Shown: piece by piece, positions 23,409-51,705 of the stretch
Layout of the letters: the number at the start of each line of letters is the position of its first letter
Numbering within the stretch: the stretch's first letter is position 1
Source: an uncultured Candidatus Saccharibacteria bacterium
Lineage (GTDB): Bacteria; Patescibacteriota; Minisyncoccia; Sungbacterales; HO2-52-23
Reading direction: 5' to 3'
Assembly (NCBI GenBank): GCA_964361015.1
Contig: CAYHZE010000001.1
Coordinates: forward strand, 1-51,845
Length of the DNA: 51,845 bases
Notes under the pieces: generated by a model
The model's database searches: none
What the model was told of the DNA's origin: nothing
Seen by the model: the letters and a program-made list of their open reading frames with translations, nothing else
Position numbers and translations under genes: made by a program

Positions 23409-23552
23409 GCTTTTGAGATGATTTTTTCAAATTTCGAGCGAAAAAGGTGATGAGGGATGAAGGCGTACTGGTTTAAGTACGCCGAATCCCGAAGAACCTT
23501 TTGTAGCCGAAATTTGGAAAAATCAGCCAAAATGTTATTGTGCAAAAGGTCT
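23391..23552 (+). repeat. B/C-superfamily palindromic element, copy B6 (intermediate between B and C)
   Basis: Arms agaccttctgcacaataa / ttattgtgcaaaaggtct; boxes atttcgagcgaaaaa and ttttgtagccgaaatt are shared with B and C. Confidence 0.85.
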
Positions 23553-25665: not shown

Positions 25666-25805
25666 TTTTCGTAGCGAAATTTTCAGATTTCGAGCGGGTG
25701 CTAGGAAAAATTTTGAAGCATATACAGCGTATATGTTGAAAAATTTTTACAAAGCCGTAGCCGAAATCTGGAAATTGTAGCAGAAAGGTTATAAGGGGAC
25801 AGGTG
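25648..25805 (+). repeat. Family B palindromic element, copy B3
   Basis: Arms agacctgtccccttataa / ttataaggggacaggtg; the core is nearly identical to B5. Confidence 0.92.
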
Positions 25806-26300: not shown

Positions 26301-26460
26301 AGATCTGACTTTGTAAATATTTTCTACTGCAATTTCCAGATTTCGGCTGCGCCTTTGCAAAAATTATTCAACATATACTCCGTATATGCTTCATAATTTT
26401 TGCTTCGGCTCGCCAGAAATCTGAAAATTTCGCTACGAAAATATTTACAAAGTCAGGTCT
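26301..26460 (-). repeat. Family B palindromic element, copy B4
   Basis: Arms agatctgactttgtaaatattttc / gaaaatatttacaaagtcaggtct; conserved core; TA flanks. Confidence 0.92.
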
Positions 26461-44138: not shown

Positions 44139-44295
44139 ACCTACTGCGTAATTATTTTTGTAGCGAAATTTTCAGATTTCGAGCGAGGCGCAGGAAAAAT
44201 TTTGAAGCATATACAGCGTATATGTTGAAAAATTTTTACAAAGCCGTAGCCGAAATCTGGAAATTGCAGCACAAAAATAATTACGCAGTAGGTCT
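44137..44295 (+). repeat. Family B palindromic element, copy B5
   Basis: Perfect 25-bp arms agacctactgcgtaattatttttgt / acaaaaataattacgcagtaggtct; TA flanks. Confidence 0.92.
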
Positions 44296-50464: not shown

Positions 50465-51184
50465 ATGTCATATTTAACAGTAGAAGAAATGCGAAATAAT
50501 CGGGAGTTCATGGCAGGTGATAAGAATCTTGACGAGGGCGGGACGCGATTTTTGGGAAGCACGGAAGCTGATCTTGCGCTGAAACTTTTTCCCAAAGAGG
50601 GAAGGATTTTAGATTGCGGTCCGGCATCAGGCATGTTTATTAAAGTTCTGCAGGATCATGGATTTAAACATATTCACGCGCTTGATGTCATTGATACGAT
50701 GATATACGGAGATCGCGCGCAATTTCCATTTCAAGAAATTGATTTTAATAAGGATATATTTCCGTATACGGATCAGTATTTTGACGGCGTGGCGGCCTGG
50801 GGCATTATGGAGCATATGGAAAATCCCTATCACTTTATGCGTGAAATACATCGGGTGCTGAAAAACGATCATTATTTTCTCATGGCAGTTCCCAGTATGT
50901 TTCACTGGTGGAGCCGGCTTATTTTTTTGAAAGCCGGACTTTTCCCGCGATGGAGCCATCGCAATAATCATATTGCATTATTTCCACGCGGCGTGTTTGA
51001 AAATACTTTTTTACGTTACTTTACGCTTGAAAAAACACTCTACACAAAGCCAAGTTTCCGGCTGAACGTATTTGACTGGACAAGCAAATATGTTCCGTCA
51101 AACGAGTGGTTCGGCAACTATGTGGTGTACATGCTGAAGCGCAAGGAGTTTGTGCCGTTTGTTGCCAATAAAAAGAAGAGATAA
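50465..51184 (+). CDS. Class I SAM-dependent methyltransferase
   Basis: ILDCGPASGMFIKVL motif I; FDGVAAWGIMEHMENP. Confidence 0.7.
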   Translation: MSYLTVEEMRNNREFMAGDKNLDEGGTRFLGSTEADLALKLFPKEGRILDCGPASGMFIKVLQDHGFKHIHALDVIDTMIYGDRAQFPFQEIDFNKDIFPYTDQYFDGVAAWGIMEHMENPYHFMREIHRVLKNDHYFLMAVPSMFHWWSRLIFLKAGLFPRWSHRNNHIALFPRGVFENTFLRYFTLEKTLYTKPSFRLNVFDWTSKYVPSNEWFGNYVVYMLKRKEFVPFVANKKKR

Positions 51185-51190
51185 TTTTTA

Positions 51191-51352
51191 AGAGCCTGTT
51201 CATAATCTTTTTTCCAGAGCCATTTTGTGATATTTTGAGCGAAAAACCTGAAGACCGACGAAACGTAGCGGTGCCTACGTTGAGGAGGTCTGAAGGTTTT
51301 GCAGCCAAAATAGCACAAAATGGAGTCGGGAAAAAGATTATGAACAGGCTCT
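51191..51352 (+). repeat. Family C palindromic element, copy C2
   Basis: Same orientation and length as 1..162; perfect outer arms agagcctgttcataatctttttt / aaaaagattatgaacaggctct. Confidence 0.92.
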
Positions 51353-51365
51353 AAGAATAAAAAAG

Positions 51366-51413
51366 GCCCTGAACACTAGATTAAACTCTATAAGAGTTTG
51401 CTAGTATCAGGGC
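51366..51413. terminator. Nested hairpin between convergent genes
   Basis: gccctgaacactag ... ctagtatcagggc with an inner aaactct-ata-agagttt hairpin; no clear U-tract. Confidence 0.35.
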
Positions 51414-51432
51414 AGTTAAAAGAAAAAAGAAA

Positions 51433-51705
51433 TTAGGCTTCGAGCGGGGTAGGCGAACTCTCCTCGTCCCACCACATCCACATCATCTCATCATGGAGGT
51501 ATTTCTCGAAAAGTTCGCCAATTTTCTTTGGGTCAAGGGATGCTGACATAATGGCAATGGTGCACTGGTCCCAATTCGCAGTTGGGACCTCGTTAACAAT
51601 CCGTGGTGCATGACTGCCGTCAAAAACAGCGTCTAATGCCCGTTGGATTGGTTCTGTCTGGGGCTGTTCTGTCCAGTCCCAATGATAGAAGAGTAATTTG
51701 ATCAT
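51433..51705 (-). CDS. Hypothetical protein (90 aa, Trp-rich)
   Basis: ORF only; lies outside the repeat-bracketed locus, on the opposite strand. Confidence 0.4.
   Translation of the reverse strand: MIKLLFYHWDWTEQPQTEPIQRALDAVFDGSHAPRIVNEVPTANWDQCTIAIMSASLDPKKIGELFEKYLHDEMMWMWWDEESSPTPLEA

Follow-up and report, generated by a model that had tools for sequence, protein, structure and literature searches.

Compensatory substitutions in a rod-shaped MITE of CPR bacteria, probably maintained by selection on a single-stranded fold

The locus and its two family C copies

We investigated two copies of a repeat, C1 and C2, in the window, i.e., the whole stretch of 51,845 nucleotides that was analyzed. 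The genes and repeats concerned are listed below (coordinates, strand, feature).

1–162, +: C1, the other family C copy, whose first base is the contig end
16046–16148, −: further family B copy
23418–23525, +: distant superfamily copy (core), AGACCT-type ends, putative TTA duplication on either side
25676–25778, +: further family B copy
26330–26431, −: further family B copy
44165–44266, +: core of a family B copy, matched by a 105-position core covariance model
50465–51184, +: class I SAM methyltransferase gene upstream of C2, its stop codon 6 bases before C2
51191–51352, +: C2, hairpin MITE copy of family C, 162 bp, by repeat comparison and fold
51366–51415, −: terminator-like hairpin followed by a U-run, 50 nt (−25.4 kcal/mol, z = −5.6)

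C2 sits between the methyltransferase stop codon and the terminator-like hairpin, which is the terminator-like site of the convergent ORF at 51433–51705 and lies outside the MITE. The element proper within C2 probably spans 51192–51351, with GAGCC...GGCTC ends. ORFs crossing the element are short and occur on both strands, and no promoter-like site was predicted in C2. The start of C1 at the contig end is an assembly break inside the repeat. Ends of contigs 3, 7, 15, 50, 138 and 140, like window position 1, also fall inside element copies; these repeats are a main cause of assembly breaks in this genome, and the placement of C1 and C2 at either side of the window probably carries no meaning.

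C2 is a direct repeat of C1 with 94% identity. The first-pass annotation had placed C2 at 51191–51352 with roughly ten differences from C1, and both values were correct (10 of 162 aligned bases). Each copy forms one long hairpin (−94.9 and −90.4 kcal/mol, with z of about −15 and −14, respectively). The differences are given below from C1 to C2 in element positions, to which 51190 is added to obtain C2 window coordinates.

38 (51228)/125 (51315): C:G to U:A, fully compensated on both sides
72/91: G:C to A:U, fully compensated on both sides
72–73 (51262–51263), +: GG to AA, partners of 90–91
90–91 (51280–51281): TC to TT, partners of 72–73
73: G.U to A:U
127: U.G to U:A
8: A.C mismatch to G:C
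14: C.U mismatch to A:U
123: A:U to A.G, pair lost in C2
92: A.A to A.G, by which the family-wide tandem G.A motif is regained

The C:G to T:A change that had been described in a sub-stem is exactly the pair 38/125, and the apical G:C to A:T and G-T to A:T changes are exactly those at 72/91 and 73. Five other copies carry the U.G intermediate at 38/125, and the family states at 72–73/90–91 are GG:CC, GG:UC, GG:UU and AA:UU. In a simulation, ten random differences struck at least two of the 65 pairs on both sides with P = 0.015. The C1–C2 comparison with its two fully altered pairs is suggestive, yet weak when taken alone.

Anatomy of the element

Every member of the superfamily takes a rod fold over its whole length, and in the superfamily consensus the helices are variable while the non-helical parts are fixed. 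The consensus termini are of the form RGA.CC. The outer loop has TTTCGT..CGAAA opposite TTGCAG.AGAAA, the inner loop has TTTYGAGCGAAAA opposite TTTGCAGCCRAAA, and the two are versions of one motif. The corresponding parts of C2 are as follows.

51233–51246, +: 5′ half of the inner asymmetric internal loop, TTTTGAGCGAAAAA
51297–51310: 3′ half of the inner asymmetric internal loop, TTTTGCAGCCAAAA
51243–51300, +: apical domain with three tandem G.A/A.G mismatches and a variable tip

The inner asymmetric loop is near-invariant between CPR phyla, and the asymmetry of the rod is likewise conserved between them. The tandem G.A/A.G oppositions lie at positions 60–61/102–103, 67–68/95–96 and 70–71/92–93. 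Since purines stand on both arms at these sites, the complementary strand would carry pyrimidine–pyrimidine mismatches, and the element is therefore not a true palindrome.

The source genome (1.14 Mb, 146 contigs, 44% G+C) contains about 20 copies on different contigs, plus more distant members. Six copies are 162–163 nt long, seven are 206–212 nt long and enclose, within one loop, a nested GC-rich hairpin of 47 nt, and several further copies are truncated by contig ends. In the seven long-form copies of family C (L008, L009, L011, L012 and L014 among them), a GC-rich hairpin of 43–47 nt sits exactly in the conserved inner loop (e.g., L007:463-505); other genomes also have long forms, and a few further rod elements, on contigs 85, 12 and 7, contain the small hairpin as well. 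It may represent an optional branch, or else an insertion nested in the loop. An independent mobile unit was rejected for the 47-nt hairpin, which was found almost only inside rod elements.

No curated Rfam family matched at the gathering threshold in the window or in 15 diverse loci, where only noise (E up to 10) was returned. The CUGAAGA and CUGAA motifs were inspected as hammerhead or K-turn candidates and rejected as symmetric tandem G.A pairs, because the required bulge or GAAA element is absent.

Covariation among copies within and beyond the source genome

We searched relatives of the source genome with a covariance model of the 105-position core: of 61 genomes from the same family and order, 25 contained the element, often in multiple copies. 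The model also recovered the family B repeats of the window. In the genome collection, a degenerate core pattern matched more than 116 stretches, labeled Saccharibacteria, Parcubacteria, Peregrinibacteria, Berkelbacteria, Doudnabacteria, Magasanikbacteria, Kuenenbacteria, Vogelbacteria and a few other labels. Some matches lie on MAGs labeled as non-CPR, namely Acidobacteriaceae (L059 and L094) and Bdellovibrionales (L061 and L114); these could be mis-binned CPR contigs or cases of horizontal spread.

In an RNAalifold analysis of the 14 complete copies of the source genome, 27 of 64 pairs were altered on both sides. In this alignment, 96.4% of cells were paired, none of 500 shuffles reached any of five measures, and pairing fell to 40–50% when the partners were slid. 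Among 83 distinct copies across CPR, both-sided change occurred at 19 of 22 core pairs, in 365 cells compared with 93 ± 11 after shuffling, and no shuffle reached the observed values. Additionally, 43 independent pairs of related copies contained 134 double changes from one Watson–Crick pair to another. Three variable stems of family C show four-gamete patterns, which indicate recombination or recurrent mutation, so that independent events within family C are few.

The first-pass annotation had argued for selection on structure from only two sequences and had proposed additional copies and a formal covariation test as the check. With this check, the claim is supported by many sequences, since no shuffle matches the observed pairing, and substitutions distributed without regard to pairing were not what the added copies displayed. 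Such covariation is what a structured non-coding RNA family would display. The consistent orientation within transcription units expected for structured non-coding RNA was not apparent, the copies being of mixed orientation, and C2 has no promoter-like site.

Insertion sites and target duplication

Family C is a class of MITE within a CPR-wide superfamily. Its members are small (162–212 bp), non-coding, multi-copy and dispersed; an empty site is recognizable, and their TIRs are in common with those of an IS. C1 and C2 would accordingly be two insertions of a non-autonomous transposon (MITE) of approximately 160 bp, as part of an overall reading that we consider probable. The pairing analysis of the first-pass annotation stood, whereas the mobile nature of the repeat, with its IS5-type ends, had gone unrecognized.

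A copy on contig 87 splits a family A repeat, and the flanks, once joined, align gaplessly to the intact family A consensus; this site is compatible with a 2-bp duplication or with none. A copy on contig 45 also lies within a family A repeat, where one extra base is left, which fits a TTA duplication (3 bp). For C2, a putative 3-bp target duplication, TAA, lies at 51189–51191 on the left and 51352–51354 on the right, with the terminal A/T inseparable from the element ends. TTA or TAA flanks stand on both sides of 8 of 13 family C copies, a count that is not statistically significant for family C alone. Across 75 elements, 17 had identical flanking 3-mers, compared with 5.3 ± 2.0 after permutation, and none of 5000 permutations reached 17. 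The putative target duplication is of the TA/TWA type, and its length is ambiguous (2 or 3 bp, and 4 bp in some subfamilies) because the terminal A/T may be the element's own.

Partner insertion sequences

The sole IS5-family IS of the source genome is a 914-bp element on contig 28 (L174:134-1047, where L174 is contig 28, 1–2499), with domains DUF4096+DDE_Tnp_1 and a match to NCBIfam transpos_IS5_3 at 234 bits. It is intact, with a 275-aa transposase and TIRs of 19–24 bp, and lies about 20 bp upstream of a tRNA-like gene that was spotted by eye (L174, approximately 1069–1140). Compared with its TIRs, family C is identical at 11 of the first 12 bases and an L047-type MITE subfamily of another genome at 18 of 19. 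In a related genome, a 914-bp IS with HTH_Tnp_4+DDE_Tnp_4 has ends that start like those of AGACCT-type MITEs; in the related genome G019, which contains 18 MITE copies, an IS end and the termini of AGACCT-type MITEs agree at 18 of 19 bases. One interior is thus combined with two TIR types, which match two IS5-type transposases (DUF4096+DDE_Tnp_1 and HTH_Tnp_4+DDE_Tnp_4). The similarity between IS and MITE stops after the TIR, and the conserved MITE interior is therefore not derived from these ISs. No autonomous element with both loop halves at its ends was found in the source genome or in the IS loci.

Based on these terminal matches, the matching IS5-family transposase is a candidate partner that may mobilize the element. 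The presence of a PF01609 transposase does not track the element among the 61 genomes, a comparison that is weak either way with fragmented MAGs.

Two other partners were rejected. An IS630/Tc1-type partner did not fit: the source genome has two DDE_3 genes, their TIRs have no convincing match to the element, and DDE_3 was found in 7 of the 61 relatives, none of them a multi-copy genome. The IS630/Tc1-type element on contig 19 (L175:899-2089; 1191 bp) has perfect 30-bp terminal inverted repeats and, judging from these repeats, was probably active recently; a second, more degraded copy on contig 12 adjoins a rod element. A RAYT/IS200 partner was rejected because Y1_Tnp is about as frequent among genomes that carry the element (19 of 25) as among those that lack it (26 of 36). 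The source genome has a single Y1_Tnp (IS200/RAYT-like) gene encoding 228 aa (contig 12:845-1528, L173). Y1_Tnp ORFs of about 230 aa are present in 45 of the 61 related genomes, and this HUH protein, conserved in these CPR lineages, is possibly domesticated.

Strand specificity and the path of compensation

Among 100 representative elements, isolated helix mismatches comprised 151 G.U and 75 A.C; in the outer arms, which lie outside the search model, the counts were 70 and 27, respectively. With RNA parameters, 97 of 100 elements had the more stable fold on the + strand (by a mean of 13 kcal/mol); with DNA parameters, this held for 96 of 100 (4.4 kcal/mol). Between co-directional genes, 17 representatives were in sense (++) and 26 in antisense (−−) orientation, and the G.U:A.C ratios were alike in sense (37:18) and antisense (86:39) gene contexts. 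The strand bias is the same whichever direction the neighboring genes take, so selection seems to act on the spreading element. When half-known contexts were included, there was a mild antisense excess (48 vs 29 representatives, loci L028–L136), which might indicate that mRNAs tolerate the more stable + strand fold less readily.

Polymorphic pairs of the 38/125 type occur in family C as C:G, U.G and U:A. At the polymorphic pairs of this family, G.U-type intermediates are carried by 4–8 copies each, and A.C never by more than two. In 43 non-overlapping pairs of related copies, the changes were distributed by identity as follows (WC, Watson–Crick).

At least 93% identity: 1 double compensation, 13 WC–G.U singles, 8 WC–A.C singles
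86–93% identity: 48 double compensations, 48 WC–G.U singles, 23 WC–A.C singles
80–86% identity: 85 double compensations, 72 WC–G.U singles, 30 WC–A.C singles

Private changes in family C gave 7 Watson–Crick, 6 G.U and 8 A.C states, so that pair breakage was about as frequent as pair retention, whereas shared changes (38 Watson–Crick, 13 G.U and 3 A.C) kept the pairing. Shared changes are also older, and slow purifying selection on resident copies could mimic this contrast. The first-pass annotation had reasoned that G-T oppositions would be tolerated as G-U pairs and that the constraint may therefore act at the RNA level. The first part agrees with the G.U intermediates and the roughly 2:1 excess of G.U over A.C; as for the second, the data establish only that one particular strand folds, which may or may not be RNA.

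Interpretation

Taken together, the paired differences between C1 and C2 are genuine compensatory substitutions that arise stepwise, from Watson–Crick through G.U to Watson–Crick. The pairs would be kept because folding in single-stranded form is required of one particular strand, the + strand of C1 and C2. Selection may act mainly on element lineages that are still being copied and not on resident copies or host mRNAs: copies able to fold would be propagated, and residents would afterwards decay at random. The step at which the fold is read could be an element-made transcript or a single-stranded DNA stage. Overall, we consider it probable that this is an IS5-ended MITE whose single-strand fold is selected among element lineages. 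For the folded strand itself, RNA is roughly the leading candidate, somewhat short of an even chance, followed at a distance by some other form and then, slightly behind, by single-stranded DNA.

We weighed this reading against a host-beneficial structured RNA or cis-acting mRNA element (a stabilizer, processing site or regulator) that is kept locus by locus. C2 stands in sense orientation directly behind a stop codon, covariation is strong with conserved loops, G.U is tolerated, tandem G.A motifs are typical of RNA, and a precedent has been published in bcr1, which is transcribed (PMC3184786). However, the copies have no sense bias to flanking genes (17 ++ vs 26 −−), the G.U:A.C ratio keeps its direction where genes run antisense, young or private changes disrupt pairs at random, copies are inserted within other repeats, and there is neither an Rfam match nor a promoter-like site in C2. 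Independence from host transcription and fresh changes that look unselected thus argue against a host mRNA function per locus, and we regard such a function as unlikely. It is still less likely that the arms were matched mechanically with no structural selection, either by quasipalindrome template switching or, within a hairpin or cruciform, by arm-to-arm mismatch correction or gene conversion. Such a process would suit the outer-stem dinucleotide at columns 13–14/201–202, which has four matched states among copies of approximately 95% identity, more coordinated change than point mutation alone would readily give, as well as the apparent reshuffling of modules between copies. Yet asymmetric loops, bulges and G.A mismatches are kept across phyla and not 'corrected'. 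Young pairs are mostly uncompensated singles, with compensation growing only with divergence, and G.U intermediates persist while A.C do not, although a templated process would treat both alike. The gradual accumulation along a wobble route and the conserved loops and bulges therefore speak against one-step templated correction of the arms.

Transposition as single-stranded DNA by an HUH (IS200/RAYT-like) transposase, in the manner of REPINs, would make the fold the substrate and TA/TWA the target motif. In its favor, the fold is specific to one strand and does not depend on transcription, a Y1_Tnp gene is found once in the source genome and also in 45 of 61 relatives, the contig 87 insertion can equally be read as an insertion at a T/A junction without duplication, and AGACCT-type copies have CATA in common at their left flanks. 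This reading is nevertheless improbable, to about the same degree as mechanical matching: Y1_Tnp does not track the element (19/25 with vs 26/36 without), the termini match DDE-type IS5-family ISs at up to 18 of 19 bases, matched flanking 3-mers exceed the permutation expectation, and the contig 45 site has one extra base. A constraint on double-stranded DNA only, by the same transposase acting at both ends or by a cruciform pairing the ends, is the least likely of all and in our view highly improbable. The outermost 12–19 bp are true TIRs in common with ISs, and very short transposons need bending to bring their ends together. However, the compensated C1/C2 pairs lie well inside the TIRs, and over the entire 160 bp the helices vary freely in sequence but retain their pairing. 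Moreover, a constraint on a duplex or cruciform would weigh equally on both strands; it cannot yield an excess of G.U over A.C or same-strand stability in 97 of 100 elements, so that a one-strand constraint argues against it.

The preferred reading, a single-strand fold selected among lineages of an IS5-ended MITE, raises a question of its own. A DDE transposase works on double-stranded DNA, and why it should call for a single-strand fold specific to one strand is not obvious; if the transposon otherwise moves as a duplex, what recognizes its conserved single-stranded fold? It is conceivable, though we think it rather doubtful, that the rod core, with its two nested loops and three tandem G.A motifs, is a single-stranded RNA or DNA ligand for a conserved CPR protein. 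If so, the core would be a 'payload' that raises the success of any MITE bearing it, which would explain the two TIR types with two IS5-type transposases and the persistence across CPR phyla.

What began as a hint from two sequences is now a well-sampled example of how a mobile element evolves by compensation, with stepwise G.U intermediates within one genome. The strand bias of the fold, independent of host transcription, points to the element itself as the unit under selection. CPR genomes are tiny, yet several rod-shaped repeat families are present in them. For annotation, IS5-type ends are of help, since rod repeats break assemblies and mimic RNA genes.

Comparison with known systems

Integron attC sites, for which the R′/R″ box consensus is GTTRRRY, were rejected: the window copies occur in both orientations, and in an informal look no R′/R″ boxes were noticed at the ends. 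ERIC/IRU, Correia (NEMIS) and RUP/BOX repeats resemble the CPR element as imperfect palindromes of 100–170 bp in intergenic DNA, and their transcripts fold into long hairpins. They differ in occurring in other phyla and in their unrelated sequence, and we know of no nested repeated loop motif or tandem G.A series described for them. These repeats are listed among the MITE-like repeats (PMC3184786).

By its ends and its partner IS, the CPR element classifies as a Tourist-like, IS5-associated MITE. PIF/Harbinger, IS5 and TWA duplications are linked. The element resembles the IS427-IS1031-type/IS1237 systems in its partner IS of approximately 0.9 kb, its IS5-family transposase and its 3-base TAA/TTA target; IS1237, an IS5-family element of 899 bp, duplicates TAA (PMC2516522). 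In typical MITEs only the TIRs are conserved, whereas in the CPR element the interior loops are the most conserved parts, more so than the TIRs.

Compensatory maintenance of hairpins has been documented for REPINs, with a fold proposed to form in ssDNA or mRNA (PMC3116915). A REPIN is a pair of short GC-rich REPs with a spacer, and the transposase to which REPINs are linked is a single-copy HUH enzyme; in contrast, the ends of the CPR element match DDE IS5-family ISs, and Y1_Tnp does not track it. Compensatory changes also maintain the fold of bcr1, a group A bcr repeat of approximately 155 bp in the Bacillus cereus group (PMC3184786). Like the CPR element, bcr1 is small, mobile and dispersed, does not code for protein and has base-pair compensation; it makes a target duplication (PMC3184786), to which the putative one of the CPR element would correspond. 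It is transcribed, has 5-bp direct repeats and a cruciform-like two-hairpin fold, and is confined to one species group, whereas the CPR element is unrelated in sequence, forms a single rod with IS5-type ends and a putative 2–3-bp duplication, and occurs in CPR phyla. The CPR element works like bcr1 and REPINs without belonging to either.
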